A stretch of 64,000 nucleotides of DNA, from IMG/VR virus record IMGVR_UViG_2816332632_000001, positions 11,200-75,199 of that record. The stretch is one strand, 5' to 3'. This document shows, in pieces, positions 1,091 through 60,294 of this stretch (positions are counted from its first letter, which is position 1; each line of letters starts with the position of its first letter). The notes under the pieces were generated by a model. It worked only from the letters and a program-made list of their open reading frames with translations. It was not told the DNA's origin and made no database searches. This DNA is from a virus. Taxonomy: Duplodnaviria > Caudoviricetes. A program made the position numbers and the translations under genes.

Positions 1091-1126
1091 GATTAGCTGC
1101 CTAATCCGGTAGGCTTAGCTAGCTAA
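1091..1126. promoter_or_regulatory. Tandem palindromic operator sites between divergent int and xis
   Basis: GATTAGCTGCCTAATC (1091-1106) and TTAGCTAGCTAA (1115-1126). Confidence 0.7.
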
Positions 1127-1146
1127 TTCCAAACGAAGGAGGATTC

Positions 1147-1335
1147 ATGAGAAACACGCTCGACATCGGCCAGGTCGCATCGAAGCTCGGGCTGGCGGTG
1201 CAGACGCTCTACCGCTGGCGCTCCGAGGGCCACGACATGCCCAAGGGCTTCACCATCGGCAACCGCCTCCGCTGGTACGAAGACGTCGTCGACGCCTGGA
1301 TCGAAGAGCAGTCCGAGAAGGCGGTCGCGGCATGA
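1147..1335 (+). CDS. xis: Excisionase / AlpA-MerR-type HTH protein
   Basis: 62 aa, VASKLGLAVQTLYRWR HTH, strong SD, divergent from int. Confidence 0.85.
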   Translation: MRNTLDIGQVASKLGLAVQTLYRWRSEGHDMPKGFTIGNRLRWYEDVVDAWIEEQSEKAVAA

Positions 1336-1466
1336 GCGCGTGGACCGACCCCTGCCCATACGGACTTCCGGCTCACGACTTCGAGCCGCTGCGCGAGCTC
1401 CAGAAGTTCTACGTAGGCAACACCATGAAGGTGGCCATCTGCCGGAAGTGCGGGATTGCGCGATGA
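1332..1466 (+). CDS. Small Cys/His protein (44 aa)
   Basis: ATGA overlaps at both ends; MSAWTDPCPYG...CRKCGIAR. Confidence 0.55.
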   Translation: MSAWTDPCPYGLPAHDFEPLRELQKFYVGNTMKVAICRKCGIAR

Positions 1467-1795
1467 GCAGCCTCATGGAGCACATCGAGCGCGCGCTCCG
1501 GCCGTCAGAGAAGACGTGGACAATCACCTTCGACGACAGCCCGGCGCTCCGAGACCTCTACGACTGGGTGGATCGCGAGTTACGGGCGGACAGTGACCTC
1601 ATCGAGCAAGATCTGCTTTCGCTCCCCGGGGTGCACCGTGGACTCACTGCGGCCGAGGCGGAGGAAATGGGTCTCATGATCGTGCGACAGCGCCCGCCGC
1701 ACGACCCCACATCGAGCGTGTACCGCGGAATCTGGGCGCATGGTACGCCACTGATCGACCACCACCCGGAATGGGGCGAGGTGCGCGGATGGTGA
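1463..1795 (+). CDS. Hypothetical protein
   Basis: ATGA-coupled start, phage-like codon usage. Confidence 0.6.
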   Translation: MSSLMEHIERALRPSEKTWTITFDDSPALRDLYDWVDRELRADSDLIEQDLLSLPGVHRGLTAAEAEEMGLMIVRQRPPHDPTSSVYRGIWAHGTPLIDHHPEWGEVRGW

Positions 1796-1921
1796 GTCGA
1801 ATCGAGGATGGCCTCGACATTGAGCCAAGTCTCCGATGCCGCGGCTGTGGGGCGGGGATTCGCATGGCGAATCTCGTGTGGGGGGACTGCATCAACCCCT
1901 ACTGCATGGAGGGTGATCCCA

Positions 1922-2218
1922 TTGGGCGCGAGTAGACCGAGCAACAACGATCCTCGCGGCAGCGCCGAGTCCCGACGGCAGCGCAAGATCTTCCTGCTCG
2001 CGACGTTCGGTGACGGCTACACGGCGCCGTGCGCGTTCTGCGGGTTCGAGCTCGACTTCTGGACGATCACCGCCGACCGGTTCCCGATACTCGGGGCGGA
2101 CGGCGGCAGCTACCGTCGCGACAACATTCGGCCGGCGTGCCTCCACTGCAACTCGAGCGAGGGTGCGAAGGAGGGCGCTCGGCGACGGCTCCTGCGAGTA
2201 GGGGTGGTGGCGGCATGA
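1922..2218 (+). CDS. HNH endonuclease
   Basis: CAFC...DR..P...GGSY...NIRPACLHCN; start uncertain. Confidence 0.85.
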   Translation: MGASRPSNNDPRGSAESRRQRKIFLLATFGDGYTAPCAFCGFELDFWTITADRFPILGADGGSYRRDNIRPACLHCNSSEGAKEGARRRLLRVGVVAA

Positions 2219-6858: not shown

Positions 6859-9800
6859 TTGTCGGACGACATGCGGACCGAAGCCGAAATCCGGCTCAAG
6901 GTCGCGTCAGATGGCGTCGACAAGGCGATGGACGAACTCGCCGGGCTGGACGGCCAGGGCGAGAAAGTAACGCGCACACTCCTCTCCGCACGCAAGGCGC
7001 TCAAAGAGCTCAGCGACGAAGCAGGGACCGGATCTGCTCAGCTTTCCGGCTACGCCGACGGCTTCGGCAAGCTCGTCACGAAGCTCAATGCCTTCAAGAA
7101 GGCCAAGCGGGACGCCGCGCAAACCTCCGTCGTCAACGGCTCCACCGACGGCACCGACCGCGCGGCACTGGAGAAGCTCTCCACCGCCGAACTCGAGCAC
7201 TACATCGCCATCGACGACGCCCGCGGCCAGAACGCCGTGTCGGTTGCCCGTCAGATCGTCGCGCAGCGGCAGCGTGAGACCAGCGAATCCGAGCGCCTGC
7301 GCACGCAGGAAGACCGGATCTACAACCAGCTTCTCTCGGAGCAGACGGCCGCGCGCAAGAAGGCGACGGACTCTGCAATCGCCGAGATCGAGCGCGAGCA
7401 CCGCGCCTACGTTGCGGCGTACTCCGGTGAGTTCAACAACGCCTCACAGCAGAGCGCTGCCGCATCCGCCGCGCAGCAGGACCGCCGCTACGCCGTCCCC
7501 ACCCCAGCCTCCAGGAACACAGCCAACCCGTACGACAAAGCCGCCGCCCAGTCGCAGTACGCCGCCCAGTCAACCCGCGACTACTCGAACTCGCTCAAGG
7601 CTCAGGCCGAGGCGCACAACAAGGTCGTCAACGCCGCGCACGCCGAGGCTCTCGAAGAGGACAAGCTGCGCCGCACGCGCGACGCCGGCACAACCTCCCT
7701 GATCGCCCAGCGGTACGCGCTCTACGACGTCGCCACCACCTACGGCATCGTGGGCGCCGCCATGACTGCCGTGGCGGCCGGGACCATCAAGGCGTCCGCA
7801 GACTACGAGAGCGCCTTCACCAACGTCGAGCGCACGACCATCGACTCCAGCGGCAACGTCTCGCAGGCGGTCGAAGACCTCAAGCAGCAGTTCGTCGACC
7901 TGTCCACCCAGATTCCCGTCTCCTTCGAGGATCTCACCAGCATCGCCTCGCTCGGTGCGCAGCTTGGCATTCCCGAGGCCGCACTCGAGTCGTTCACCAC
8001 CACGGTCGCGCAGTTCTCCGCCGTCACCAACGTCACCGTCGACGAGGCATCCAAGTCGTTCGGTGCCCTCGGCTCCCTCATGAAGGTGCCCGCCGACCAG
8101 TTCAACAACCTCGGATCCTCGATCGCCCAGGTAGGTGTGAACTCTGTGGCGACGGAGTCGGAGATCCTCTCCGTCGCGCAGCAGATCGCCTCCTACACGA
8201 CCCTCGCGGGCTACTCGGCGCAGGCGACTATCGGACTGTCGGGCGCGCTCGCATCGCTGCGCGTTCCGCCGGAGCAGGCGCGTTCCGCGATCCAGTCGCT
8301 CTTCAACACCATCAACAACGCCACTGCCAAGGGCGGCCCGGAGCTCGACAACTTCGCCAAGGTGCTCGGCCTCACCGCCGACCAGGCGCGCGACCTGTTC
8401 TCCACGAACCCCGACGAGTTCGTGAACCGCTTCGTCGACTCCCTCTCGCACCTGAACTCGCAGCAGCTTACGCTCACGCTCGACGCGCTCGGCCTGTCCG
8501 AAAAGCGCGTCTCCACTGTCATCACGAAGCTCGCGGGCAACACCGACGTCCTCAAGCAGGCGCAGAACGACGCAAACCAGGCGTGGGCGAGCGGCACCTT
8601 CCTCACCAACGCCTACGGGCTCGTCGCCGACGATCTCAACTCCAAGCTGGCCGAACTTGGCTCCGCCGTTAGTGGGCTAATCGCGTCGCTCGGGCAGAGC
8701 GGCACGCAGCTTGCGCCCCTCATCGACGGCCTGATCGACGTCGTCAATTGGCTCCGCCAGATCGCCAACGACCCGTCCGCACAGGTCTTCATCCGTCTCG
8801 GCCTGGAGATCACCGCTATCGTCGGCGTCTTCGCCACGTTCAAGGCCGCCAGCGCCCTCGCAACCGCCTCCACCTACGCCCTCGTCACCGCCAACGAGGC
8901 GCTCGCGGGCAAGGGTATCCAGGGCGGCATCCGCGGCCTGGCGACATCCATGCTCGGCCTCGGTAACGCCGCGCGCACCGCAGAGGTGGGCACGAAGGGC
9001 GCCGCCGCCGGAGCCACGGTCGCGGGGGCCGTCGCTGGCGGCGCTGCGCCCAAGGTGAACATGCTGAGCGCCGCGCTGCGCGGACTCGGCCGGGCCACCG
9101 TCATTCTCGCCCTGCTCCAGGCCGCCACCGAACTCGTCTTCAACTTCGGCGGGTCCATGAAGTGGCTCGCAGGCATCTTCGGCTTCCTGCGCGACGGCTT
9201 CAACGGGGCCATCCAGGGCGTCGTCGACTTCATCAACACCATCGTCGCGGGCATGGGTCCGCTCGGCCAGTTCATCGGCCTCATGGCGCGCGTCGTCGGC
9301 GGCATGAACAAGAAGATGAACAACGACTGGGTCAACGGGTTCAGCGACTGGGCGGACAGCCTCGACACAACGACGGATGCGTCCGGCTCGCTCGACGACT
9401 CCCTCTACGGCCTCAACGACACGATGGGCGACACCGAGACGGGCTTCGACGGGCTCGGCGACTCGGCCGGCGGAGCGGCAGAGCAGATCCGCACCCTCGA
9501 GGACTACGCCAACGACCTCTCCACCGTGTTCAAGCGCGCCTTCGACATCCGCTTCGGCGGCGAGCAGGCACTCGACACAATCACGAGCGGCTGGCAGAAG
9601 ATCGCACAGGCATCCGCAGACGCCCGCGCCGAGATGGAGAAGGCCAACGCCACCCTCGCTCAGCTTGCGGCCGACAAGTCGATCAACGAGTACTGGCTCT
9701 CCGTCGCCACCGCCTACGGCGACACCCTCCGCGCATCCAAGATCCAGGCCGACCTCGCCAAGAACGCCACCGACACCAAGGCGGCGCAGGACGAACTCAC

Positions 9801-16207: not shown

Positions 16208-16297
16208 CCATCCCGGAGAGTTAGCTAGCTATAGCAGGTAAACTGGGAGAATGCTGAACGTCTCCCGAGTGTCTGTCATCCCGAAGGTGGTCGCCCT

Positions 16298-19165: not shown

Positions 19166-19678
19166 TTAAGCAGCTACCGGTCGCGGCGGCCAGAAGGTGC
19201 GCAGCGTCGGCATGTGCTTCCGCTGTTTGAGGTAGACGAGCGAATGCGTGATGGCGTCGTTCGAGTCGTCGTTGTCGGTGCCCTTAGCGTGCAGCCCGAA
19301 TTCCGCCAGGAAATTGAACCGGACACGCTGCCGCTGCGCCTTCGTCTTCGCCTCGGGCGGGTAGCCGGTGAGCAGCGCCTTGTGTGTGCGCATCTGCCAG
19401 GTCACCGCCCGCCACTCGGCATCCGTGAGTGCCATGCAGAGCGCGCCCTCGATATGCACGGGAGTGAGGTCGGCCTGGAAGTTGTTCCGCGCGAGCACGA
19501 ACTTTTCGACCACGAGCTCGTCGTAGACCGGCCGCTCGTGAGTCCACCAGCGCTTGAACCCCGCCACCCCGCCGTGCACCTGGTAGCGCTCGACGAGTTG
19601 ATAGGGCGTGGTCTCGTTGTAGAAGCCGAGCGAGATCCCCGTGTTCTTGCCAGGGTCGATGGAGAGCAGGCGCGTCAC
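19166..19678 (-). CDS. RuvC-like Holliday junction resolvase
   Basis: LLSIDPGKNTG, VVEKF, DSNDA. Confidence 0.85.
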   Translation of the reverse strand: MTRLLSIDPGKNTGISLGFYNETTPYQLVERYQVHGGVAGFKRWWTHERPVYDELVVEKFVLARNNFQADLTPVHIEGALCMALTDAEWRAVTWQMRTHKALLTGYPPEAKTKAQRQRVRFNFLAEFGLHAKGTDNDDSNDAITHSLVYLKQRKHMPTLRTFWPPRPVAA

Positions 19679-28201: not shown

Positions 28202-28245
28202 GTGTGTTTCCTCCTCGGATCAGTTTAGCGGACTAATTGGCACAT

Positions 28246-29187
28246 TTAAGCAGCTAAATCGAAGCTGACCTCAATGTCGATGTCGGGGACGGGCGCGACG
28301 GCGGGTGAGATCTCGCCCTTGCCGTCCTGTTCGCAGGCGAAGCAGAGTGCGTGCGACTCGAAGTCAGTCGGCTTGCCGCCGGCCTCGAGGTGACTGAAAA
28401 TGCGCTGCCCGCGGTCGATGAGCCACTCGGCGTAAGCCTGGTCGTAGTCGAACGACATCACGTGGATGTCGTGCACGGCCGTCGGGTCGTCGTATCGCTG
28501 GCCAGCCGGGTTGTCGAACCACCCGGTTCCGTCACGGGCGATGAAGACGAGCGAGGCGCGCTTGCGGCCCGAGCCGTGCATGTAGAGGTTCTGCTGGCCG
28601 TAGTAGCCGGTGACCTTGTAGGCCATCTTCTCCATCTCGGTGGCGTACTCCTTATCGGAGAGCTTCACCCAAGTGCGGCGGCGGCCGAAGGTCGGCTCGA
28701 GACCCTGCTGGATCTGCATGTAGTCGATGAGAATGCAGATCTTCTTGCGGGTCGAGCCCTTCCAGTCGACAAGCTGGAGCGCGGACAGCAGGAGGTCGAT
28801 CGTCCCGCCGACCGGGCCGTAGCCAGCGATGTCGGCGAAGTAGGTGTGGACCTCCGGCTTGGCGTCGGGGTTGAGGCCGATGAGCGCGGCCATCTGCCTG
28901 CGCATCTCTGCGGTCCCGGCTTCGTTGAGGTCGTCGTTGTCGACGAGCTCGTTGACCCTCTGTTCGAGGATCGAGTGGAATGCTGTTCCGAGCACTCGCC
29001 CCATCCAGGCGCGGTCCGTGATCGGAGTGGACCGGTCGTCGCCTAGGAAGTTGAAAGCGAGGCAGCGGTCGCAACCGTTCGACAGGTTCGACGCGCCGAT
29101 CCTGACCTGCTTGTCGCGGCTGGTGGGCGCCTTGAGGAGGCTGATCGCCAGGTGGCGGATCTCCTCGTCCGTGTAGATGTCGGTCAC
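28246..29187 (-). CDS. Cas4-like PD-(D/E)XK exonuclease
   Basis: GASNL..CDRC, GTAFH, GTIDL..LVDWK, QQNLY, CFAC. Confidence 0.85.
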   Translation of the reverse strand: MTDIYTDEEIRHLAISLLKAPTSRDKQVRIGASNLSNGCDRCLAFNFLGDDRSTPITDRAWMGRVLGTAFHSILEQRVNELVDNDDLNEAGTAEMRRQMAALIGLNPDAKPEVHTYFADIAGYGPVGGTIDLLLSALQLVDWKGSTRKKICILIDYMQIQQGLEPTFGRRRTWVKLSDKEYATEMEKMAYKVTGYYGQQNLYMHGSGRKRASLVFIARDGTGWFDNPAGQRYDDPTAVHDIHVMSFDYDQAYAEWLIDRGQRIFSHLEAGGKPTDFESHALCFACEQDGKGEISPAVAPVPDIDIEVSFDLAA

Positions 29188-29345
29188 GACGTCTCTCCCT
29201 TCATGTCGATGGTGGAACCGGTCAGCGGTGCGGGGCGCGGCCCGCTGACCGGTCTTCTTTTCTGGTGCCTTGACTTGTTCACGATCTCTCCCTCCTGGTT
29301 GGTACAAGAAGATTTAATCGCAAATTAGCCACCTAAGTCAAGGGA

Positions 29346-29690
29346 TTAGCTAGCTAATCTTCCAATTTCTTTGTCCGCCATTTGGAGGACACGAAGTTCT
29401 CCCAGGTCAAGCGGGATTTCTTCGAGTATGGGCTTGCCGTCGTCGTAGCCGATCCCGCCCCACACGCCCCAGCCGGGCTTGCTCACCTCTCCGTACTCGC
29501 GGCATAGCTGCCGAATTGGGCATGATGCGCACATCTCCTCAGCCACGGCGGGCTCTGGCGCGACCTCATAGTTCGCGAAGTCCTCTCCCCTCCCGTAGCA
29601 GTTTCTTTTGTGGTCCCAGTCGTTGCGCTTCGCCTCCCGGAGGAGGGCGAAGAACTCGCGACGAACGACGCGCACTCCACGCTTCGGCAC
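29346..29690 (-). CDS. WhiB-family transcription factor
   Basis: C...CASCPIRQLC...GVWGG. Confidence 0.88.
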   Translation of the reverse strand: MPKRGVRVVRREFFALLREAKRNDWDHKRNCYGRGEDFANYEVAPEPAVAEEMCASCPIRQLCREYGEVSKPGWGVWGGIGYDDGKPILEEIPLDLGELRVLQMADKEIGRLAS

Positions 29691-33278: not shown

Positions 33279-34579
33279 GCGGCCACCAGGCTTCCCTCGG
33301 CCTCGAGGTCGACGGCGTCCTGGTCGAGCATCTTGGTTTCGTGCTGGAGGAAGATCGGCGACTTGGCCTTGAGCAGGAACGGTGCCCACCCATCGGCGCG
33401 AACGACCACGCCCTCGTCGACAAACCGCTTGGGCAGCGGGACGACGTCGAGGATTGGGTACTTCGCCTCGCCGAGAGTCTGGCCGTTGATGCTGAGGTTC
33501 TTGTCGATCCAGTAGTCCACATCGAACTCAGCGTGCCGCCCACTCCACAACTCGGGCACGTACTTGAGCCCGCGCTCCGTGGCGAACGCCTTCACCTGCG
33601 GCCACGAGAGGTCGACGAGCATCCCGCCGTTGGTGACCACGGCGACGCGGTAGATGTAGAGCTCTGCCGCGCCCTGCGGCAGGTCGTATGTGTAGTCCTT
33701 TTGGATGGGCGCGCCATCCGGGGTCCAGCCGATGAGTTCGCCGTAGACGACGAAATTCTCCGGGATCATGTCGTCGAGGGTGCGGCCGAAGTCGGTCCAG
33801 ATGTCGGAGCCGTAGAAGTGGTTCTGGTTCGGGTTGTTCGGGTCTTTGATGACCTTGCGCGAGCCGTACACGTGGTCGTACTCGGTCTCGCGGACGGTCA
33901 CGCCGAGCTTCTTGGCCAGGCGCTCCAGGAAGGAGAGCTTGCGCTTCACGAGCGTATTGGCGATGCGGATGCTGGTGCCGTGGAGCTTCTGCGTGACGAC
34001 GATCTGCTCGTCCGGCGCGATCTTGAACTCGTTGCGCCAGTAGTTCTCGGTGTCGTAGTGCTCCGGCAGGAACTTCTCGTCGACGCGCTTGAAGACCTTC
34101 TCGTGCTTGGCGGTGCGCTCGCGCGGCTCGGCCGGCTGCTTCACGAGGTACTTGCGGCAGATCTCGTGGTCGCCGATCTTGTCGAACGTGTCGCCGACCT
34201 CGAAGTCGCGAAGATCCTCCGGGTGGTTGAGCAGGTAGTCGAGCGAGGTGAGCGGCATGAAGAGCGCGTCGGAGCGGTGGCCGCGGAACTTCATCGCCTT
34301 CACTCGGCGGTTGTCCTCCAGGTAGCCCTTCACGCGGTCGTCGACGTTCTTCTCGGCGTGGCGGTACAGCCCATTGAATGCGGCGTACTCGTCGGAGAGT
34401 TGCGTCTCGGCCGGGAAGAACAGGCCGATGTCGCCGACCTTGACATCCTTCGACACGATGGCCTGGAGTCCGAACAGCGGGACGCCGACCACGTTGTCGC
34501 AGTTAGCTAGCTGATTGATGGCGTTCACCCTCACGACGACGGCCGCGTAGTTCGGGTTGACGGGTGCTTCGAGTTTCAA
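33275..34579 (-). CDS. RNA ligase (DRB0094/Rnl5-like, N-terminal OB fold)
   Basis: TQKLHGTS motif I, VYGE, EGVVVR, LKAKS. Confidence 0.88.
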   Translation of the reverse strand: MKLEAPVNPNYAAVVVRVNAINQLANCDNVVGVPLFGLQAIVSKDVKVGDIGLFFPAETQLSDEYAAFNGLYRHAEKNVDDRVKGYLEDNRRVKAMKFRGHRSDALFMPLTSLDYLLNHPEDLRDFEVGDTFDKIGDHEICRKYLVKQPAEPRERTAKHEKVFKRVDEKFLPEHYDTENYWRNEFKIAPDEQIVVTQKLHGTSIRIANTLVKRKLSFLERLAKKLGVTVRETEYDHVYGSRKVIKDPNNPNQNHFYGSDIWTDFGRTLDDMIPENFVVYGELIGWTPDGAPIQKDYTYDLPQGAAELYIYRVAVVTNGGMLVDLSWPQVKAFATERGLKYVPELWSGRHAEFDVDYWIDKNLSINGQTLGEAKYPILDVVPLPKRFVDEGVVVRADGWAPFLLKAKSPIFLQHETKMLDQDAVDLEAEGSLVAA

Positions 34580-35623: not shown

Positions 35624-35666
35624 ATCTGAATCCTCCAATTCGTGATTAGCTAGCTAAACCCTAGCA

Positions 35667-37262
35667 TTAAGCAGCTAATCGTAGGGTGTTTTTGTTGGAA
35701 AATGCCCGAAGTTTGTTCGAGCGGTACACGCCCACGTCCTTCGTTTCGCGGGCTTGGATCTTCACCTGCTGGAATCCGCCGTTGGCTTCGGTGCGTCCGG
35801 GGCGGAACAGACGGCGGACGAACTGCTCGTTGACCGCCTCGTCCCCGTCCATTTCGTTCAGCCAGGCGAGCTTGTTGCAGACCTTCTGGAAGCCGTCGAG
35901 ACCAGTGCTCATGGATGGAATGGTTGTGACGATGTACTGGAGCTCCCCGGCCAGGAAGCGCGCCTTGATCTGATCTCGCTGCTTTGAAGAGATGTCGCCC
36001 GTCCACTCCGCCACCGATTCGCCGGCCCTGGTCATGCGCTCGACGACCACCTTGGCGAACCTCTTCGAGTCCATGCCGATGATGGCGGGCTGGTCGCCCC
36101 AGAAGCGGAGGATGCCCTGGAGGGCGCGCAGTTTTGTGCTGACGCACTCCGTGTCGAAGTAGACCTCCCCCTCGTCGGTGACGGAGAGTTCGCCGAGCGC
36201 CGCCGTGCGGAGCCGCTGGCGCAAATTTGCTGGGATCTCGACCGCGAGTGGATTGTCCTCGATCCAGACGATGAGGTCGCGCTCCAGCGACTCGTACTGG
36301 TGGCGCTGCTCCGGCGACAGGTCGACGTACACGGGCAGCGCATCCGGGATCGGCTCGGCCTCGGCGCGGAAGTAGAGCGGGAGGGTCTTCACGAACTCGC
36401 CGGGGTACTTCTCCCCCACCACGCGCTGCACAGGGTTGTCGAAGTGATCGAGGAGCGGCTGACCGTCCTTGTAGACCGTCTCCGTGGTGCACCAGTCGTC
36501 CTGCCATCGCACGTAGTTCGGGTCGATGAGGTCCGGCCAGAGCCAACGGGTGACAGCCCAGATGCCGGGGAACTTGTTGCCCTGCGGGGTGCCGGACATG
36601 CCGAGCTTGTACTCGGAAGCGATGGTCTGGATGGTCTTGAAGCCGGCCGACTTGCGGTTCTGGATGAGGTGGACCTCGTCGAAGATGAGGAGGTCCACCG
36701 GTGGCATTTTGGCGTACGTCTTGAGTTGGACGGAGCGGCGCTCACGGATCGGCACGAGAGCCGGGCCGATGACGGTAGCACCGTTGCCGGGCACGCGCTT
36801 CGCCGGATGCTCCTCCTTCCACAGCGCGCGCTCACTCTCGTTCATCGGCACGAGCACGAGCTCGTCAGAGCCGGTGACGGTCTTGAACTTGGGGCGCCTA
36901 GTCCGGCTCTCGAACGCGAGCTTGCTAACCCAGTCCTGCTTGACGAGGTACTGAGCGCCGACGAAGAAGTGCCCCGGCGCCCCGGCGAGGAGGTCTTGCA
37001 TCGCCTTCTTGCCAGGGGCGCTGGAGTCGATGCGGCGGAGCACGACCGCACCGTCTGTCTGCGCGAGCATGAGGTCCGCGAACTGCCCGTACGTGTCCTT
37101 GATGCCGACGGTCAGGGTGCGCTCGAACTGCACGGCCGACTCGACGGCGACCAGGGTTTTGCCATAGCCAGGCTCGTCGGCCACGAGCGCCGCCTTGGTC
37201 GGCTCGGCGCGCAGGCTCTTGATCCTGAGCGCCTGCGCTTCGCGGGGCGTCTGCTTCTGCAC
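35667..37262 (-). CDS. SF2 (SNF2-like) helicase
   Basis: ADEPGYGKT, DEVH, MSGTP, GLDG.Q, Q..RR..RPG. Confidence 0.9.
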   Translation of the reverse strand: MQKQTPREAQALRIKSLRAEPTKAALVADEPGYGKTLVAVESAVQFERTLTVGIKDTYGQFADLMLAQTDGAVVLRRIDSSAPGKKAMQDLLAGAPGHFFVGAQYLVKQDWVSKLAFESRTRRPKFKTVTGSDELVLVPMNESERALWKEEHPAKRVPGNGATVIGPALVPIRERRSVQLKTYAKMPPVDLLIFDEVHLIQNRKSAGFKTIQTIASEYKLGMSGTPQGNKFPGIWAVTRWLWPDLIDPNYVRWQDDWCTTETVYKDGQPLLDHFDNPVQRVVGEKYPGEFVKTLPLYFRAEAEPIPDALPVYVDLSPEQRHQYESLERDLIVWIEDNPLAVEIPANLRQRLRTAALGELSVTDEGEVYFDTECVSTKLRALQGILRFWGDQPAIIGMDSKRFAKVVVERMTRAGESVAEWTGDISSKQRDQIKARFLAGELQYIVTTIPSMSTGLDGFQKVCNKLAWLNEMDGDEAVNEQFVRRLFRPGRTEANGGFQQVKIQARETKDVGVYRSNKLRAFSNKNTLRLAA

Positions 37263-42107: not shown

Positions 42108-42358
42108 TGAAACTCCATTCTCGGGGGTTTTGCTTGGATTAAGCGTATCGGATGTATCGGAATTTAGCTAGCTAATTTGTACGTATTAGTCAGCAATACG
42201 AACGCTACATCGGGGAAATACGGTGGCTGCTGAAATGTGACTAGCCAGTAAACGCCTAGGAATCAGCGTTCTTGCGAGATCGCTCTCACTTCACTCTTAA
42301 CACTTGACCGTATTTAGTTCTTGTAACTACATACGGGGAATACTGGGGGTGTGGGGTA

Positions 42359-45285: not shown

Positions 45286-45556
45286 AGAACCATCCTACCA
45301 AATTAGCTAGTTAAAGTGTAGCGATTAGATAGCTAAATGTACGGTTTTATTACCCCACAATGGGTGACATGAAACGAGCTCGAGCGCGCCGGCATGATGG
45401 CAAGCTCGGGTGCCGGCCGGGGGCATGAGCTCATAGTGTGCCGGGAAACATCCCATATTTTGGTGGCGAATGGGGGTGTTTGCGGGTGCGGCCAGTGCCG
45501 TGAAAATTTTTCGCGATCCGGGCCAAACCTGAATATCCCACCACTACCCTGATGTC

Positions 45557-46442: not shown

Positions 46443-46460
46443 ATCGAACATATGTTCGAT
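46443..46460. promoter_or_regulatory. LexA (SOS) box
   Basis: ATCGAACATATGTTCGAT matches actinobacterial TCGAAC-N4-GTTCGA exactly. Confidence 0.88.
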
Positions 46461-46591
46461 TTGCTTCATTTTCAAGCTGGAAAATGTACGGTTATTAGCT
46501 AGCTAATCGGTGGGATTAGCCCACTAATTGCGATAGTGTTGGTGTTGTTCGGGCGTGGAAGCCCAGCAAACACAACGAATTGGAGGATTCA

Positions 46592-50426: not shown

Positions 50427-50537
50427 GGGACGACGACTATCCCGAACTTGGCTCCGGCGAGGTCGAATTTACCGAGGGCCGCACCATCATCCACTTCGGG
50501 AGCCCCGCTGGCTCCCAATTCACAGACAGGAGTAACA

Positions 50538-51452: not shown

Positions 51453-51622
51453 GCCCGCAGCAAGTTTCCGAGTTTGCGCCCGCAACTAAGGCGCTCCTCG
51501 ACGGCGAGATCCTGGTGACGATCCTGCGCCCGGTCTCCGGCAACATCCTCGTCGACGTCGGCCACGGGACACTTCTCGTCCCCAGGGAGCGGCTCACGTT
51601 GCTCGCTTAGCTAACTAACGCG

Positions 51623-51651
51623 AAAAGCCCCCGTGAGAACGGGGGCTTTTT
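51623..51651. terminator. Bidirectional Rho-independent terminator
   Basis: AAAAGCCCCCGT/ACGGGGGCTTTT. Confidence 0.85.
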
Positions 51652-51665
51652 CGGGTGGTTCACAG

Positions 51666-51878
51666 TCAGACTGACGCGAGGAACCTCTCGACTCCAATCT
51701 CCAGCGGTTCGAGCAGCCCGAACTCCTTCTTGACGGCGGCGATGAACTCCGCCTTGTCGATCTCGATGCAGAACCCGTGGGCTTCGTCGGCAATGAAGAC
51801 CGAATTAGGGAGGCTGCGATGCGTCCCCTCGATCTCGACGACGCGGTCGTGGAAAACGTTCTGCAATCTCATAGTCAT
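51666..51878 (-). CDS. Hypothetical protein divergent from DGQHR gene
   Basis: 70-aa ORF with GAAAGG SD, ends at terminator. Confidence 0.55.
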   Translation of the reverse strand: MTMRLQNVFHDRVVEIEGTHRSLPNSVFIADEAHGFCIEIDKAEFIAAVKKEFGLLEPLEIGVERFLASV

Positions 51879-52090
51879 GTCGTTTGGTGGCCTTTCATAT
51901 CCCTAGTTATCCCCCGTGCATACGCTCCGGTCTACCTGTGAAAGTTAGCATGGTGGTCCGACACAGGATCGGCTTAAATGCGTTTAATGTGCTTGCCACC
52001 CCCGTACTGGGGGCGATAGCCTGTAGCCGCGGATTAACGGGACGTTGGTATAGTTTCCCGTTGTCTAATGATATTTGAGGAGGTCAACTT

Positions 52091-53485
52091 TTGGCTGCTG
52101 GCACGAAGGCGCAATCCGGTACTGCGCCGCGGGTAACTGGTTACGACACGGACATTAAGTACTACGCGAACCGGTACAAGCAGGGCGGCAGGACGACCTA
52201 CTCGTTGAACCTTTCGCCCCTACAGGTGATCTCGACGATTCATCGCCCGGACCCCAGCCAGGCGACACCCGGCAACCGCGCGATCAATGCGAAGCACGCC
52301 CAAGGATTTGCCAAGTACTTCCGCGAGCACGACTCCTGGGTGGTGCCCGGCATGATTATGCGCGTGGCTGAGCCGTTCGACTTCGAGCTAATCGAAGAGG
52401 TCGAGGGCGCATCCTTCGGAGTCATTTCGTTCCCACGACAGGCGGCCGGAGACATTCACATCCTCGACGGTCAGCACCGCATCCTTGGCTTCTACCTGGC
52501 TAGCGAGCAGATCAACCAGGATCTCGACAAGGCGCGGAATCAGCTTGCAATGGCCCGCCGCGTCGACCCACACGGCGCTGCCGTTCGGGAGGCAGAGAAC
52601 CGGATCAAGGAGTTGGAGGCGCAGCGCGCACGTTTCGAGCGGGAGCGCGTGGACCTCACCATCGTGGTCGAGTCCGACCCGGCTGCGTACAAGCAGATGT
52701 TCTTCGACATCGCCGACAATGCCAAGGGGATCAGCGGCTCCGTCAAGGCGCGATTCGACGCCCGCAAGGTCGTCAACCGCTCACTCGAGGCCGTTCTGCT
52801 CCACCCGCTGCTGCTGAACCGAGTCGACATCGAACAGGACCGCATCGGCCGCGGAAGCATCTACTTCCTGGGCGCGCGGCACGTCGCCGAGATCATCCGA
52901 AGCGTCATCGTCGGACTCGACGGGCGCGTGAGCGCTCGGCAGGACAAGGAGTGGAAGGAGGTCGACGTCGCGGCGAAGGCCAACCAGTTCTTCGATGTGC
53001 TGCTCGAGGCGTTCCCGCCACTGCGGGCGATGAGCCTCGGCCAGCTTCTCCCGGACCAGCTTCGAAAGACAAGCCTGCTCGGCTCCGTCCTCATGATCCG
53101 CATTCTCGCCGGCGTCTACCACGACCTCGTCACGAATCACGCGTTCACGCCAGAAATGGTGGCGAACTACTTCGCGAAGCTCAGTCCGCACATGGAAGGA
53201 CCGGTCTACCCCGGCTCGATCTGGCTCGATCGCACCCCCACCGGCGCATTCGGCGATGGGGCAATGGCTCCAAACGGGCGCCGCCAGGAGGCCAAGGCAT
53301 TCAAGAACGCCCTGGTCGACTGGGCGGTTGAGGCGCCCGACTTCCTCGACGAAGCTCCCGCACCCCGACCCGTCGCGGAAGAGGCTGCCGAGCTCGAATT
53401 GACGGAGGAGGCCGCCGACGAGGTGCTGCGCCCGGAGACAGCCCGCGCACGCAAGAGCGCCAAGGATGCCGCGCCCGTTGGCTGA
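52091..53485 (+). CDS. DGQHR-domain / DndB-family protein (ParB-Srx fold)
   Basis: GNRAIN..HA, HILDGQHR, QMFFDI..NAK; SD GAGGAGG. Confidence 0.85.
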   Translation: MAAGTKAQSGTAPRVTGYDTDIKYYANRYKQGGRTTYSLNLSPLQVISTIHRPDPSQATPGNRAINAKHAQGFAKYFREHDSWVVPGMIMRVAEPFDFELIEEVEGASFGVISFPRQAAGDIHILDGQHRILGFYLASEQINQDLDKARNQLAMARRVDPHGAAVREAENRIKELEAQRARFERERVDLTIVVESDPAAYKQMFFDIADNAKGISGSVKARFDARKVVNRSLEAVLLHPLLLNRVDIEQDRIGRGSIYFLGARHVAEIIRSVIVGLDGRVSARQDKEWKEVDVAAKANQFFDVLLEAFPPLRAMSLGQLLPDQLRKTSLLGSVLMIRILAGVYHDLVTNHAFTPEMVANYFAKLSPHMEGPVYPGSIWLDRTPTGAFGDGAMAPNGRRQEAKAFKNALVDWAVEAPDFLDEAPAPRPVAEEAAELELTEEAADEVLRPETARARKSAKDAAPVG

Positions 53486-53834: not shown

Positions 53835-54344
53835 ATGCCACAGGAGATCCGAGCCGTTCCCGCGAACGTCGTCGACCACAAGCTCCTGATGAACGCGGCC
53901 AACATGAGCCCCGTCGAGCTCAGCGCCGAGGTCAACGGAATCCTGCGCCCCGAGGTTGCCGCAGCCCGAGTCAAAGAGCTTCTGCGCGCACGCGACTGGC
54001 TCACCGACACCGAGCTCGACAACCTCGTCACGTACAAGCTCCAGAAGGCGCTCGCGCGCCTCGAGGGCCAGTACCTCGACAACGAGAACCTCGAGCTCCA
54101 GCTCAAATTCCTTCGCGAGATCGCGGGCCGCCTCGACAAGCGCCGCGCGGCCACGACCGTCGACCTCAACACGCTCTACGGCAACAACGGCCGCCTCATG
54201 GCGCAGATCTACGACATGTGCCTCGCGTACATGAAGGGCGCGCTGCGCGAGAAGATCGACGCGGACCTGTGGGACGAACTCGCCCAGGAGGCGCTCGACC
54301 ACGCCAGCCTCGAGATCTCCCGGCACGAGGCGATCGAGGCATAG
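53835..54344 (+). CDS. Putative terminase small subunit
   Basis: Helical 169 aa directly before TerL; leaderless promoter. Confidence 0.6.
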   Translation: MPQEIRAVPANVVDHKLLMNAANMSPVELSAEVNGILRPEVAAARVKELLRARDWLTDTELDNLVTYKLQKALARLEGQYLDNENLELQLKFLREIAGRLDKRRAATTVDLNTLYGNNGRLMAQIYDMCLAYMKGALREKIDADLWDELAQEALDHASLEISRHEAIEA

Positions 54345-56032: not shown

Positions 56033-56077
56033 TAGATCCTGATTATTAGCTGGGTGTTCGCTGATAGACTGCTGAAC

Positions 56078-57682
56078 GTGCCAGAAATCGCCGAAGTAGC
56101 CCCCGAAACCCGCGAAGACCTCGAAACTGCCCTCGAAGCAGTGATGACGGCGAACGGGTTCCTTGCCGAGGATCTGGACCGCGTGCGGCAGATGTTCAAG
56201 GCGGAGGACATCGGTTGGTTCCGATTCGGCGATGGCAACACCGAGCACGGCATGACGAAAGAGGATCTCGACGACTGGTCGGGGCAGATCCGCGAAGCGA
56301 TCATCGGCAACACCTGGATCAAGGCGGGTATCCGACTGCGGAACTCGTACGTCCTCCAGGGCGGCGGGATTCACTACGAGAACATCCCGGCGGACTCGGA
56401 TGGCCGCAAGAAGACCGCCAACGTTCAGGCCCACATCGACAACCCGATCAACAAGGCGCACTTCTTCGGCATGGGCGCGCGGAAGGAGCGCGAGAGCGCC
56501 CTCTATTCCGACGGCAATGTGTTCTACCTCGGCGACGACGAGACCCGCACCCTCGACCCGGTGCCGCTCTGGGAGATCGACGGCGACTACCGCAACCCCG
56601 AGAACGACGCGCAGATCTGGGCGTACCGCCGCAGGTGGAGCTACTACCCGCCCGGAAAGTCGGCCCCCGAAGAGCGGGTGGCCTGGTATTTCACCGACAC
56701 CTACAAGTCCAAGGCCACAACGAGCGACGGCAAACTCGTCACCACCATCACGCACGCGGGCAAGGCCGAGAAGGTCGATAACGGCAAGACCATGTTCGAC
56801 GGCCGGGTGAACACTCAGATCGGCTGGGCGTACGGGGTGCCGGATGCCGTGATTGCGCTCGTGTGGGCGCGCATCTACCGCGACTTCATGACCAACGGCA
56901 AGATCATGACGGACGCGCTCGCGCAGTTCGCCTTCCAGGCGGTCCAGGAGACGCAGAAGGGCAGCAACAACGTCGGCCTCCAGATGGCCGGGGTCAAGCG
57001 CGCTGGCGCAACCGTGGTCACGAACAGCCCCAACGGGCTCGTGCCGCTGTCGTCCGCTGGCAAGGGGTACGACTTCCCTTCCGGCGTCGCCTTGCTCGCC
57101 GCCGTCGCTACGGCCATTGGCGTCTCCGTTATCCACCTCTCCGCCGACCCCGGCACCGCCGGCGGCAGCTACGGCTCAGCATCCACTCTCGACCTGCCGA
57201 CCTTGCTCGCAACCAACGATCGCCGCGAGTGGCACATCGAGTTCGACCTTCGCGTGCTGCACTGGATGGGCGCCAACGACGCACACGCCTACTTCAAGCC
57301 GCTCACCAACCCGACCGACCTCCTGCGACTCATCCAGGGCTTCGTCGCACTGTGGAACACCGGCAACTACTCGTCCGACGAGTTCCGCAAGATGGTCGAC
57401 GAGCTCCTCGGCAACATCCCCGGCCAGGCGCCGGAGGGGGTCATGCTTCCGAACAACAGCAACTTCACCGACACCCTGACCAACGACGGCCAAGCCCCTG
57501 CCGACACCACATCCACCAAGGGCAAGGCCGCGACCGGCCAGGGCAAGGCGACGAAGTCGGGCAACAGCCCGAAGGGCAACGACCTCCGCACGGACACGCT
57601 CGCCAACTCCCTCCTCGAGGACAAACTCGACCACGTGCTCGAACGCATCGAGGCGCTCATGCTTCTCGACCGAGCGGCCTAA
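56078..57682 (+). CDS. Portal protein
   Basis: Follows TerL; DGNVF, GWAYGVPD, GSYGSA..LD. Confidence 0.85.
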   Translation: MPEIAEVAPETREDLETALEAVMTANGFLAEDLDRVRQMFKAEDIGWFRFGDGNTEHGMTKEDLDDWSGQIREAIIGNTWIKAGIRLRNSYVLQGGGIHYENIPADSDGRKKTANVQAHIDNPINKAHFFGMGARKERESALYSDGNVFYLGDDETRTLDPVPLWEIDGDYRNPENDAQIWAYRRRWSYYPPGKSAPEERVAWYFTDTYKSKATTSDGKLVTTITHAGKAEKVDNGKTMFDGRVNTQIGWAYGVPDAVIALVWARIYRDFMTNGKIMTDALAQFAFQAVQETQKGSNNVGLQMAGVKRAGATVVTNSPNGLVPLSSAGKGYDFPSGVALLAAVATAIGVSVIHLSADPGTAGGSYGSASTLDLPTLLATNDRREWHIEFDLRVLHWMGANDAHAYFKPLTNPTDLLRLIQGFVALWNTGNYSSDEFRKMVDELLGNIPGQAPEGVMLPNNSNFTDTLTNDGQAPADTTSTKGKAATGQGKATKSGNSPKGNDLRTDTLANSLLEDKLDHVLERIEALMLLDRAA

Positions 57683-57720
57683 CCTGAAAGTTACCTGGGA
57701 ATCAGCTGTACGCTAGATGT

Positions 57721-58656
57721 ATGGCACGTCAGGTACTTCACGAGTCGTTCACGACTCTCCTTGAGCGCAAGGGCGCGCGCTGGCGTGCGGTCCTCATCAC
57801 TCCCGGCCAGGGCTCCAGCGGCTTCTACGCCGAGTCGATGCTCGAGGCTAACCTGCACGCCTTCGAGGGCAACGTCGTCAAGAACTACTTCAAGCACCCC
57901 GAGAAGCCGGGCGCCCAGCGCGACCCGCGCGACCAGTGGGGCTACGTCGAAGAGGGCACCGTGCGCTACGAGCCCGGTGTCGGCGTCGTCGGCGAGATCA
58001 ACGTCCTCGACCACTGGAAGCCGGTCATCGAGTCGCTCGCCAAGGCGGGTCAGGCCAGCCTCTCCGTCTACATCAGCGCCGAGCGCGACAGCGACGGCAA
58101 TGTGACGGCCCTCTACCCCCACGTGAAGAACTCCGTGGACCTCGTGGACTACCCCGGCCGCCCAGGCTCGGCGCTCACGGAACAAATGCTCGAGTCGGCA
58201 CTTGCCGGCTTCAACGAACCTGCTGTCGAAGCCTCGGCAGAGGAGAAAGAAGACCCAATGACCCCGGAAGAGCTCAAGGCCGCACTGGCCGAAGCACTCG
58301 CCCCTGTCATCGCCTTCGTCACCAAGGAGAAGGACTCTGCCGACGAGCAGGTCCAGGCCGAGGCGGATGCCAAAGCCGTGGACAAGGCCGTCGAAGAGCG
58401 CCTCGCTGCCATCGCCGAGAAGGAGGCTGCCATCGCGGCTGCCGAAGATCTCTCGCCGAAGCAGATCGAGAGCCTCAAGGCAGCAGCCCACAAGGGTGAG
58501 GACATCACCCAGCTCCTCGAGGACGCCAAGGCGATCGCAGCCGATTTCAAGACCCTCAGCGAGTCGCACGACGTCGAAGGCTACGGCCGCGTCGTCGAGT
58601 CCGCTGGCAACAGCAACGACGACTTCACCGTCGCAGGATTCGGAGGTTCGTTCTAA
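57721..58656 (+). CDS. Capsid maturation protease / scaffold
   Basis: ITPGQGSSGFY, SVDLVDYPGRPG; acidic helical C-terminal half. Confidence 0.8.
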   Translation: MARQVLHESFTTLLERKGARWRAVLITPGQGSSGFYAESMLEANLHAFEGNVVKNYFKHPEKPGAQRDPRDQWGYVEEGTVRYEPGVGVVGEINVLDHWKPVIESLAKAGQASLSVYISAERDSDGNVTALYPHVKNSVDLVDYPGRPGSALTEQMLESALAGFNEPAVEASAEEKEDPMTPEELKAALAEALAPVIAFVTKEKDSADEQVQAEADAKAVDKAVEERLAAIAEKEAAIAAAEDLSPKQIESLKAAAHKGEDITQLLEDAKAIAADFKTLSESHDVEGYGRVVESAGNSNDDFTVAGFGGSF

Positions 58657-59081
58657 TGGCGACCAACGCAGTCTTCCCGTACAGCGAGACGGGCACCGAG
58701 CTCTGGACCCTCGCAGCCACCACGGCGCCCGGTACGCCGGTCGTCGGCGGCGCAGGCGGCGCACAGCCCGGCGTGACCCTCACCGGCACCGGCGACTACA
58801 CCGTCAGCCAGGTCGTCGGCCCGTACACCGTCTCGGGCATCCCCCGCGGCGCGCAGGGGCTCGCGGCCAAGGAGGCGACCATCGCCACCGATGGCACCTG
58901 GGACTTCCCCGTAGCGGGTGGAGACCTCACCACGGCCCAGAACACGCTCGTCTACATCAAGACGGACAACACCCTCACCACAACGGTCGGCACCAACAAG
59001 GTCTTCGGGAAGGTCAACTACCCCAAGGACTACGTGAAGGTCGCCGGCACCCTCCCCGTCAAGATCGGAGTGTTCGCGTAA
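58656..59081 (+). CDS. Capsid decoration/cement protein
   Basis: Gly/Thr-rich 141 aa between scaffold and major capsid. Confidence 0.65.
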   Translation: MATNAVFPYSETGTELWTLAATTAPGTPVVGGAGGAQPGVTLTGTGDYTVSQVVGPYTVSGIPRGAQGLAAKEATIATDGTWDFPVAGGDLTTAQNTLVYIKTDNTLTTTVGTNKVFGKVNYPKDYVKVAGTLPVKIGVFA

Positions 59082-60187
59082 TGAGCGACCGCGTATACAA
59101 GGACAAGTTCACCCTCGACGGCCGCCTGCACCCGCAGCGCGGCGCATCGCGGGCCAAGGTGCTCGAGGCGAAGGCGCTCATGGAGCGCGCGCTGAGCGGC
59201 GACTACGAGGCGGATGCGAAGCTCCGTCGCCTGGTCACCTCCGAGGCGTACACCTCTGCCGACCTGGCTCCGGCCGTCGCGCACCTCGTCAACCTCCAGA
59301 CGATCCCGCAGTTGGACAAGCCGCAGTACAGCGTGTCCGACCTGGCGAGCGTCCGCGTGGTCAAGGACTTCAACCCGGCCGTCCTATACTCCCTGTACGG
59401 CGACCTCAAGGGCTCTGGCATCGACGCGAACGGCGCCCCGGCGCGCGTTCCCGAGGGCCAGCAGTACCCGACGGTGACCGTGAGCGGCGTCGAGTCGTTC
59501 TACGCGGCACTGGCCAAGCGCGGTGTGCGGTTCGACTTCACCTGGGAGGCGCAGATCAACGACACCGTCGGCTTCTTCGCAGACCTGCCCGGTGAGATCG
59601 CGCAGCTTTCGCACGACGCGGACTACGCCGAGGTGCTCAACGCGATCCTCTCGGCTCCGTCCTCGAGCAACCTCGCCGGTGGCACCCTCCCGAACGGCGT
59701 CGTGGTTCCGGCCATGTCGAAGCTCACCCCGGATGCCATCTGGCAGGCGAAGTTCGAGCTCTCGCAGCGCAAGATCAACGGCCGCCTGATCGGCGAGGCT
59801 TCGGGCTACAACGTCCTGGTCCCGGTTGGCCGCAAGGGCTTCATCGACTACGAACTCAACAAGCAGCTCGTCGAGTTCAGCGAAGGCACGCTCAAGTTCT
59901 CCGGCGCCTCGTACTACCAGGGTGCGCTCGGGAACGTCACGACCGTCGAGTCGCCTCGCATCACCGGCGACTCCTGGGTCATGCTGCCGAAGCCGGGTGC
60001 CACGAAGCGCCCGTCGGTCGACCTGCTCAAGCTGCGCGGCTACGAGACCCCGGAGCTTCGCGTCCGCCAGGATGGCGGGGACTCCTCGTTCGACACCGAC
60101 ACGAAGGCGTTCCGCCTGCGGTACGTCGTCGGTGGCGCACTGTGGGACTCGAAGTACATCCTCAAGTCCGACGGATCTGCTGCCTAA
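59081..60187 (+). CDS. Major capsid protein
   Basis: VKDFNP, VPEGQQYP, FTWEAQINDT, SFDTDT..FRLR. Confidence 0.88.
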   Translation: MSDRVYKDKFTLDGRLHPQRGASRAKVLEAKALMERALSGDYEADAKLRRLVTSEAYTSADLAPAVAHLVNLQTIPQLDKPQYSVSDLASVRVVKDFNPAVLYSLYGDLKGSGIDANGAPARVPEGQQYPTVTVSGVESFYAALAKRGVRFDFTWEAQINDTVGFFADLPGEIAQLSHDADYAEVLNAILSAPSSSNLAGGTLPNGVVVPAMSKLTPDAIWQAKFELSQRKINGRLIGEASGYNVLVPVGRKGFIDYELNKQLVEFSEGTLKFSGASYYQGALGNVTTVESPRITGDSWVMLPKPGATKRPSVDLLKLRGYETPELRVRQDGGDSSFDTDTKAFRLRYVVGGALWDSKYILKSDGSAA

Positions 60188-60198
60188 GCAACAGCACA

Positions 60199-60241
60199 GA
60201 CGCGAAGGGGCCGCCCGAATTGGGCGGCCTCGCGTCGTTTA
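60199..60241 (+). terminator. Terminator after major capsid gene
   Basis: GACGCGA..GGCCGCCC/GGGCGGCC-TCGCGTC followed by TTT. Confidence 0.7.
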
Positions 60242-60294
60242 AGCAGCTAATCCTATCTGGGAGTTAGCTGTGTGAATGCTGATAGACTAGCGAT

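Follow-up and report, generated by a model that had tools for sequence, protein, structure and literature searches.

Introduction

One word ahead of most gene blocks of a temperate element is a kind of system already known: P1 (with its C1 protein) and epsilon15/phiV10 carry one repressor word before most transcription units of a temperate phage, and the conserved inverted repeats of phiC31 and the sites of SSU5-like phage-plasmids are dispersed words of the same kind, with different words, hosts and proteins. To our knowledge, few genome-wide operator sets that silence dozens of genes with one protein are understood (L5/Bxb1, P1 and KorB of RK2). Here we analyse 26 copies of a 12-bp AT-rich word, in its commonest form a palindrome with TTAG and CTAA arms, in a 64,000-nt window (bases 11200-75199 of the 75,199-bp IMG/VR virus record IMGVR_UViG_2816332632_000001) that covers a ~64-kb integrated actinophage. 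With middling confidence, and on sequence evidence, we read these words as putative genome-wide operators or stoperator-like sites of one phage-encoded DNA-binding regulator.

The closest described counterparts come from mycobacteriophages and from a plasmid. In Cluster A phages (L5, Bxb1; repressor of the gp71 type), stoperators are described in excerpts of PMC6550527 as biased in orientation relative to transcription, each phage having its own similar, non-identical motif, and placed for the most part in short gaps between genes; each is an asymmetric 13-bp site for a monomeric repressor (PMC9283540, in excerpt). Cluster O mycobacteriophages carry more than 30 copies of a 17-bp repeat of unexplained function, TGTTCGG-N3-CCGAACA, many of them intergenic or near gene starts, and encode a protein with a ParB-like domain; the excerpted account reports no meaningful orientation for the repeat (PMC4351075). 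The start-associated sequence of Cluster K is an asymmetric word that includes the ribosome-binding site and lies a few bases before the start (PMC4351075, in excerpt). On the IncP plasmid RK2, the KorB operator OB is ATTTTAGCGGCTAAAAG and the KorA operator OA is TGTTTAGCTAAACA (PMC11790492, in excerpt). Finally, DndB of S. enterica, for which a DGQHR motif has been named, is a repressor that binds TACG-N10-CGTA palindromes (PMC4507180, in excerpt).

Dispersed palindromes across the prophage

An original prediction, made from the letters of the window, had picked out 26 copies of the word by eye, and all 26 are present where it had placed them (Table 1). Exact TTAG-N4-CTAA arms are found in 16, including the five perfect palindromes TTAGCTAGCTAA (1115, 29346, 35646, 42164 and 46495). 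A second exact class, TTAAGCNNCTAA or its complement, accounts for six more (28246, 35667, 43883, 44830, 47790 and 60239), and four are near misses: 16221, 34503 and 45303 are each one mismatch from the palindrome, and 19166 is four mismatches from it and one from TTAAGCNNCTAA. Words so rich in A and T had been judged very improbable by chance, and the counts bear this out. Allowing up to 2 mismatches, we count 16 palindromes where shuffled sequence gives a mean of 0.13, and 0 of 100 dinucleotide shuffles reach 16; in the 75-kb record, TTAG-N4-CTAA occurs 17 times against a mean of 0.04 and a maximum of 1, and TTAAGCNNCTAA 6 times against 0.01 (200 shuffles each). The comparison with host DNA that had been proposed could be made in part: the 11-kb non-phage flank of the record has one arm-type match, and five unrelated actinobacterial genomes have 2-16 matches per 1.4-10.7 Mb, versus 16 in the 64-kb prophage. 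A literature search for the exact word gave no phage context among the matches listed.

Six pairs of sites had been described, and their spacings are indeed 22, 21, 21, 21, 22 and 21 bp, or about two helical turns. Promoter regions had been claimed for them, and they do lie in divergent or promoter regions, namely the integrase/Xis gap, the divergent gap at 46.5 kb and the regions upstream of four leftward operons. The proximal sites of three pairs end 20-23 nt upstream of the start codon. Single sites tend to come after a stop codon or a terminator-like hairpin and before the next ribosome-binding site. Altogether 19 of the 26 sites are intergenic, four overlap only the last codons or stop codon of a gene (19166, 28246, 29346 and 35667) and three are gene-internal, in the very genes that had been named: tape measure (8669), RNA ligase (34503, 76 nt from the predicted start) and large terminase (55920). 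Because the perfect word TTAGCTAGCTAA has a stop codon in all six frames, it cannot sit unchanged inside a gene; its exclusion from coding sequence is thus forced, whereas its abundance between genes is not.

Table 1. The 26 sites in the window, followed by genes and promoter-like elements discussed in the text.
Feature	Position	Strand	Context
TTAGCTGCCTAA	1093..1104		Distal pair member, integrase/Xis-like divergent gap; same gap has a site in G006, G007, G012
Perfect palindrome	1115..1126		20 nt upstream of HTH_17 (Xis-like) gene start
TTAGCCAGCTAA	2653..2664		TAA is stop of HNH endonuclease open reading frame; 9 nt before first head-tail connector gene start
TTAGTTAGCTAA	5626..5637		Immediately 3' of terminator-like hairpin, downstream of major tail genes
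TTAGTGGGCTAA, arm-type	8669..8680		Within tape measure gene
TTAGCTAGCTAT	16221..16232		13 nt past last minor tail gene
TTAGCCAGCTAA	18746..18757		7 nt past end of 425-aa gene
TTAAGCAGCTAC, weak variant	19166..19177		Adjoins hairpin between convergent genes
Proximal pair site	28225..28236		23 nt upstream of Sak4-like gene start
TTAAGCAGCTAA, distal variant	28246..28257		TTA is stop codon of upstream 313-aa gene
Proximal pair site	29325..29336		Upstream of recombination operon (313-aa, Sak4-like genes); syntenic site in G007, G012, G013
Perfect palindrome	29346..29357		Overlaps stop of WhiB-like gene
TTAGCTAGCTGA	34503..34514		5' part of RNA ligase gene
Perfect palindrome	35646..35657		22 nt upstream of polynucleotide kinase-phosphatase gene start; syntenic site in G007
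Distal variant	35667..35678		Overlaps stop of SNF2-like helicase gene
Perfect palindrome	42164..42175		56 nt upstream of conserved 196-aa gene; syntenic site upstream of G007 ortholog
Variant, sense strand TTAAGCCACTAA	43883..43894		11 nt upstream of 61-aa gene
Variant, sense strand TTAAGCCACTAA	44830..44841		14 nt upstream of 222-aa gene
Proximal pair site	45303..45314		5 nt upstream of TAGGAT -10-like hexamer (by eye) facing 124/141-aa gene
Distal pair site	45325..45336		ATGTACGGTT next on + strand
Perfect palindrome	46495..46506		Main divergent (switch-like) gap; ATGTACGGTT precedes
TTAGCCCACTAA	46516..46527		Second site of switch-region pair
Variant TTAAGCAGCTAA	47790..47801		6 nt past one gene, 23 nt ahead of next start
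TTAGCTAACTAA	51607..51618		Overlaps stop codon; intrinsic-terminator-like hairpin next
TTAGCGAGCTAA	55920..55931		Within large terminase gene, 101 nt from gene end
Variant TTAAGCAGCTAA	60239..60250		After hairpin downstream of major capsid gene; syntenic post-capsid site in G006
Tyrosine integrase	1..1050	-	3' end extends past window start
HTH_17 (MerR/excisionase-like) protein	1147..1335	+	Site always upstream of gene
Two-HTH-segment protein, 126 aa	23298..23678	-	Replication module; candidate binder
WhiB-family gene	29346..29690	-	Pfam E 3.6e-08; ends exactly in palindrome 29346
Sigma-70-like promoter TTGAAA-17-TATGTT	46447..46475	-	Leaderless leftward gene; 19 nt from palindrome 46495
AbrB/MraZ-like small protein, 54 aa	49421..49585	+	Second candidate binder; fold by motif resemblance only
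Extended -10-like element TGGTATAGT	52047..52055	+	Putative, by eye; 7 nt upstream of RNA contig first base 52062
DndB-like protein (DGQHR, ParB/DUF262-fold)	52091..53485	+	Leading binder candidate

Fixed arms and changing centres in related phages

Relatives were drawn from IMG/VR, three contigs through the capsid protein and 24 loci through the phage's DndB-like protein, and 12 records were taken in full; G000 denotes the phage of this window. Strict TTAG-N4-CTAA sites are abundant in seven of 13 records, and the four central bases differ from phage to phage: TCGA/TCGG in G007 (10 sites), TGGA/TCCA in G006 (15 sites in 27.5 kb), CGCA in G008 (6 sites) and a mixture of TCGR and TCCA in G011 (18 sites), with 8 and 10 sites in G009 and G010. 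G012 and G013 have the CTAG centre of the present phage on looser arms (12 and 19 sites within 2 mismatches of the palindrome), G014 and G015 have 10 sites each within 1 mismatch of TTAGCACGCAAA, and no clear repeated palindrome was found in G016 or G017.

Sites at syntenic positions are kept across 26-70% protein identity. The recurring positions are the integrase/Xis gap, the front of the recombination operon, a point 9 nt ahead of the first connector gene (the G006 site syntenic with 2653 also lies 9 nt before a gene start), the downstream sides of the capsid and helicase genes, and the front of the conserved 196-aa gene. Such synteny bears on an account without any regulation, in which the words would be recombination or mosaic-boundary words, or selfish short repeats, with modules exchanged through Sak4-type annealing. 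Sites do stand at module borders, a Sak4-like annealing protein is encoded and the arms are common to diverged phages; however, a phage-specific centre would hinder exchange between phages, the fixed pair spacing and extended dyad symmetry would be left unexplained, and synteny over such protein divergence indicates selection on each site. We regard this account as highly improbable.

Pooled over nine genomes, 97 of 114 sites (85%) are intergenic although the coding fraction is 81-94% per genome (binomial tail 2e-52, p=0.19). An adjacent gene follows 93 of the intergenic sites; 42 of these lie at most 30 nt and 71 at most 60 nt from its start, and the distances of the pooled sites cluster at 9-10 and 20-24 nt; nine sites supply the stop codon of the upstream gene. 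Alignment of 93 flanks adds two symmetric positions per side (RW...WY), so that the site becomes a 16-bp dyad, RW-TTAG-YNNR-CTAA-WY, and shows no fixed -10 or -35 element beside it.

These start-codon distances would also suit an element acting in RNA, UUAG-N4-CUAA, placed in the 5' leader or intercistronic RNA, where it would work in translation or processing as a ribosome landing pad rich in A and U, a start-associated sequence, a site of nuclease cleavage or an insulator that stops all frames. The nine donated stop codons and the six-frame stops of the perfect word fit this, as does the orientation bias described below, and the start-associated sequences of Cluster K are a precedent for start-linked repeats (PMC4351075, in excerpt). 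Yet the dyad symmetry reaches into the flanks and the perfect palindrome is the commonest form in G000, sites in divergent gaps and after convergent genes face no gene, a 4-bp A/U-rich stem is probably too weak to fold alone, and pairs at 21-22 bp have no rationale in RNA. An RNA-level role thus seems very unlikely to us.

Where the centre is asymmetric, its orientation can be read; a palindromic copy, as in G000, has no direction of its own. In G006-G011, the sense strand has TCCA, CCGA or TGCG in 31 of 37 sites between same-strand genes, a count that leaves out 7 sites between opposed genes or at record ends; G006 itself is mixed, at 4 to 5. The one-sided binomial tail, ~2e-5 (computed by hand), overstates the evidence because related phages share sites by descent. 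Base skew is not the cause of the bias, since the CGCA class runs against the skew, and none of the explanations we considered accounts for it on a site with dyad arms.

Promoter-like signals, RNA coverage and a possible positive control

Several further signals stand beside the sites. The 10-mer ATGTACGGTT abuts two of them, at 45337-45346 (after 45325) and at 46481-46490 (before 46495), and TGTACG (42178-42183) also follows site 42164; ATGTACGGTT may include the -10 region (TACGGT) of rightward promoters overlapped by the sites. A reading of the pair itself as a host -10/-35 promoter (TTAGCT-N16/17-TAGCTA) was rejected: its -10 has no final T, and the match does not survive the centres of the relatives. 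Downstream of the capsid gene (60252-60400) there are two copies of a second repeat of ~40 bp, CTGGGAGTT..GCTGATAGA(C/A)T, the second of which puts TAGAAT 6 nt ahead of the ATG at 60402, suggesting a leaderless late gene.

One DNA run covers the whole stretch and may be where it came from. Positions 33001-53000 were compared with RNA-library contigs (two runs, one other study), which carry no information on strand, ends or levels and may include DNA carry-over; most of the stretch is uncovered, which does not indicate silence. Exact matches fall at 41019-41457 and 44992-45249, at low depth, and at 45405-46292, a segment with two tRNA genes, a small membrane-protein gene and a further stretch. 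The tRNA genes (Gln-CTG and Asn-GTT, 45871-46029, + strand) lie inside the leftward block. A further exactly matching contig runs from 52062 to 53000, the end of the compared stretch, on the DndB-like gene.

Both the promoter survey and the placement data bear on positive control, in which the word would be a phage-specific promoter or activator site, or part of one, that switches on gene blocks in lytic growth. The short late-promoter words of T4 offer an analogy. Several points agree with such a role: the short distances ahead of gene blocks, the position of several sites after terminator hairpins, where transcription would need to restart, the orientation bias, and a WhiB-like regulator encoded beside one pair; moreover, with no host-type -10/-35 at a fixed distance, the word itself would carry the signal. 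Dyad symmetry is unusual for a promoter, however, and cooperative binding is the better match for pairs two helical turns apart and for the divergent-gap sites. Sites 9 nt from a start leave no space for a Shine-Dalgarno leader after the transcription start, the G006 sites occur in both orientations, and no sigma factor or RNA polymerase gene was seen among the window proteins scanned. On balance we think positive control unlikely.

The word outside this phage group

The pair TTAGCTAGCTAA / TTAGTAAGCTAA, 21-22 bp apart, also occurs in two Streptomyces genomes (L105 4316-4348; L140 516-549). The flanks were examined in L105, where the pair occupies the divergent gap that separates a MarR-family regulator gene from an Amidohydro_2 (amidohydrolase) gene and is likely a MarR operator built from the same word; it is an independent hint that the word can serve as an operator in actinobacteria. 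A scan of genomes for the pair pattern gave at least 120 loci and, among the matches listed, none encoding a relative of the phage apart from one weak integrase match. In viral contigs the pattern has 4 loci, three of them single-copy and one a tandem array, none related to this phage. The array (L003 1392-1468, in a 4-kb, 39%-GC viral contig) consists of four TTAGCTAGCTAA / TTAGCTACCTAA words in a 43-bp tandem arrangement, spaced 21-22 bp.

Candidate binding proteins

The leading candidate is the DndB-like protein, which matches Pfam DndB (PF14072) with E 1.4e-26 (93.8 bits against a cut-off of 29.1). Orthologs are encoded in all 13 related records, and the DGQHR motif (D126 G127 Q128 H129 R130) is invariant in 13 of 13. 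Its gene neighbours are a 68-aa gene and the terminase genes, and no Dnd match (dndCDE) was found near it among the scanned window proteins. Structurally, the N-domain aligns with the ParB-like DUF262 domain of SspE (Z 6.6, root-mean-square deviation 4.5, 152 residues) and with PadC (Z 5.9, 97 residues), both below the reliable range of the method. The C-domain is confidently modelled and helical, without a solved relative; neither it nor the full model has a Foldseek match at E up to 0.001, VIA fold scores for protein and C-domain are only middling, and the protein has no sequence match in the PDB. We tentatively put this protein forward as the binder, a possibility suggested by its family and its distribution.

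Three further proteins are candidates, each of them improbable as the binder. The AbrB/MraZ-like protein is found by a family hidden Markov model (HMM) in 8 of 13 records, comprising all seven that are rich in strict arms and G016, and is absent from G012-G015 and G017; its co-occurrence with strict-arm richness gives a Fisher value of ~0.005, calculated by hand and ignoring relatedness. As a universal binder it was rejected: a six-frame HMM search at E up to 10 did not find it in G012 or G013, which rules it out as the binder of their 12 and 19 CTAG-type sites. The HTH_17 protein, from the MerR/excisionase-like helix-turn-helix (HTH) family, always has a site upstream of its gene. The two-HTH protein occurs in each of the 10 fuller records that bear the motif and is missing from G017; its sole match in sequenced phages is a hypothetical protein of Clavibacter phage CMP1.

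The ParB-like fold also invites an analogy with KorB on RK2, in which the DndB-like protein would be an NTP-dependent clamp at the dispersed sites, spreading or sliding from them and either silencing promoters at a distance or organising or partitioning the phage DNA. Its universal presence in the relatives and the SspE and PadC alignments speak for this, as do the promoter-like element and RNA-library coverage of its own gene and the many sites distant from any recognisable promoter; in addition, OB and OA share the TTAG/CTAA arms with the sites (PMC11790492, in excerpt). But arms of only 4 bp may be identical by coincidence and the spacer differs, the fold matches fall below the reliable level with neither a demonstrated CTPase motif nor an HTH, and G017 has the protein and no detectable repeat. 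No KorA-like partner came up, although no search was aimed at KorA-like proteins, and DUF262/DndB-like proteins in prophages can alternatively be defence genes. KorB-like loading is, in our estimate, quite unlikely.

Organisation and neighbourhood of the prophage

The phage begins with a tyrosine integrase gene and the divergent HTH_17 Xis-like gene, continues with tail genes and a leftward block for replication, recombination and nucleotide metabolism, and beyond the divergent gap at 46.5 kb has a rightward block, terminase, portal and capsid genes. The integrase/Xis cassette (1-1335) thereby lies between the head genes (53835-63427) and the head-tail connector and tail genes, an order shared by G006, G007 and G012; this position implies that the attachment site lies there too, and siphovirus-like genomes do not usually have their integration module at such a place. 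Near the right window end there is the 3' fragment of a tRNA-like sequence (T-arm and acceptor end), the 11-mer TTATTCCGAAC occurs near both prophage ends, and a 17-nt imperfect direct repeat stands at 63430 and 63820; the stretches concerned are window ~63670-63685 and 63775-63836 and record ~11086-11096. The end repeats and tRNA-like fragment may mark attL/attR of a ~63.8-kb prophage; no repeat of at least 15 bp common to both ends was found.

Upstream of the phage, the first 11 kb of the record (L005 1-11050) encode a TrwC relaxase, a C5 cytosine methylase, an ABC-3C defence system (CTD6, MC2, AAA) and a two-HTH protein, with a codon-position GC pattern unlike that of the phage part. Since these conjugation and defence genes adjoin the prophage, integration in or beside a conjugative element seems likely. 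An actinobacterial host is indicated because the phage encodes a WhiB-family gene, orthologs of which are found in 7 of 12 other records. Counter-defence and repair cargo (30713-35623 and 46969-47307) includes a NAMPT-like phosphoribosyltransferase with a PRPP-synthetase-like gene (NAD salvage), RNA ligase with polynucleotide kinase-phosphatase (RNA repair) and a protein with an Acb2/Tad1 hairpin domain of the signal-sponge family.

Megablast of 40 kb found no sequenced close relative, except for one NAD-salvage gene at 71-75%. Against sequenced phages, identity does not exceed 52% for the terminase and 28.5% for the capsid protein, the 196-aa and DndB-like proteins gave no tblastn match, and a capsid-protein scan of genome contigs returned no relative.

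Discussion

We have described a word that is strongly enriched in one actinophage, that stands between genes in most of its copies and whose arms are kept in relatives with different centres. The original prediction had proposed a distributed operator system, like the stoperators of L5 but symmetric, or else parS-like loading sites. It is partly supported: a functional, phage-specific, dispersed site, predicted to bind protein, is supported by the enrichment, the 85% intergenic placement, the retention of the arms at syntenic junctions with a changed centre, and the pairs in divergent or promoter regions. The likeness to L5 extends to dispersed intergenic placement and perhaps, in relatives, to the orientation bias, and the predicted symmetry is borne out by the dyad arms, which differ from the asymmetric 13-bp site. 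As for parS-like loading, a candidate ParB-fold protein is now at hand and the arms equal those of the KorB operator, although KorB spacing is not matched.

From these observations we infer the following mechanism. A single, sequence-specific, probably dimeric regulator encoded by the phage would take the TTAG and CTAA arms as its two half-sites, with the 4-bp centre tuning specificity and differing among related phages in the manner of heteroimmune phage operators. Cooperative binding at the pairs, 21-22 bp apart, would govern initiation in the integrase/Xis gap, the 46.5-kb switch gap and the fronts of the recombination, polynucleotide kinase-phosphatase and 45.3-kb operons. Single sites between the genes of long operons, with the next start 9-60 nt away, would work as stoperators do, blocking or gating transcription that enters the next gene block; one protein could thereby restrain the whole prophage.

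Several points weigh against an operator role of this kind. Pfam and PHROGs scans of ~75 window proteins brought up no canonical immunity repressor, whether CI/XRE-S24 or L5 gp71-like, and the centre class is not cleanly tracked by any candidate protein: the recognition helices of the Xis-like protein are nearly alike in CTAG- and TGGA-class phages, the two-HTH protein does not track the classes, and the DndB-like protein has five residues exclusive to CTAG-class phages against two in a control comparison, a weak covariation. The fold matches of the latter are weak (Z 5.4-6.6), it has no recognisable HTH, and it is also encoded by G017, where no repeated palindrome was found. A symmetric dimer on a dyad site would not be expected to give an orientation bias, and many sites lie 9-24 nt from a start codon, a placement that also fits a promoter or RNA-level role. 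Finally, site-to-gene distances are approximate, as gene calls come from our own simple codon-usage caller.

A more specific form of the operator reading would make the DndB-like ParB-fold protein a KorB-style global silencer that loads at the ~25 TTAG-N4-CTAA sites and keeps lytic blocks shut. The protein would be expressed from its own promoter in the lysogen, and each lineage would retune the 4-bp centre as its immunity specificity. We hold this to be a rather doubtful possibility; if true, the DndB/DGQHR family would gain a function unconnected with DNA phosphorothioation, and the system would provide a phage counterpart of plasmid KorB and possibly a key to the unexplained Cluster O repeats.

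Beyond any one binder, the word defines a regulatory signature for an uncultured group of ~60-70-kb actinophages without a sequenced isolate. The same arms with at least four centres form a clean natural series of specificity changes, offer a direct experiment on the evolution of immunity specificity, and may supply parts for orthogonal repressor-operator pairs in GC-rich actinobacteria.

Compared with known systems, the sites come closest to the stoperators of Cluster A phages, in that tens of copies of one short word run through the early and late operons of a temperate actinophage, with a phage-specific motif and perhaps, in relatives with asymmetric centres, an orientation bias. Unlike stoperators, the arms here form a dyad, the commonest form in this phage being a perfect palindrome. 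Pairs at a distance of two turns are frequent, and Pfam/PHROG scans showed no gp71-like repressor. The Cluster O repeat has the same design of invariant inverted-repeat arms around a variable centre; its word and length differ, Cluster O is not obviously temperate, its phages are unrelated to these, and the orientation bias (31 of 37) seen in the present relatives sets the two apart. In contrast to the start-associated sequences of Cluster K, the word here lies upstream of the Shine-Dalgarno sequence and has dyad arms.

RK2 likewise has dispersed palindromes with TTAG/CTAA arms, and the ParB-family protein that reads them silences many operons; the spacer, 4 bp here, is 3 bp in OB and 0 bp in OA, RK2 is a plasmid of Gram-negative bacteria, and the candidate here is DndB/DUF262-like by weak fold support. 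DndB shares the Pfam family of our candidate binder and also recognises palindromes with 4-bp arms, but it binds two sites at its own operon rather than a dispersed set, and dndCDE do not accompany the phage gene among the proteins scanned. Against this background, what is new is the word, the phage group and the natural series of centre changes on fixed arms, together with the combination of dyad arms with an orientation bias and a candidate binder from the DndB family.

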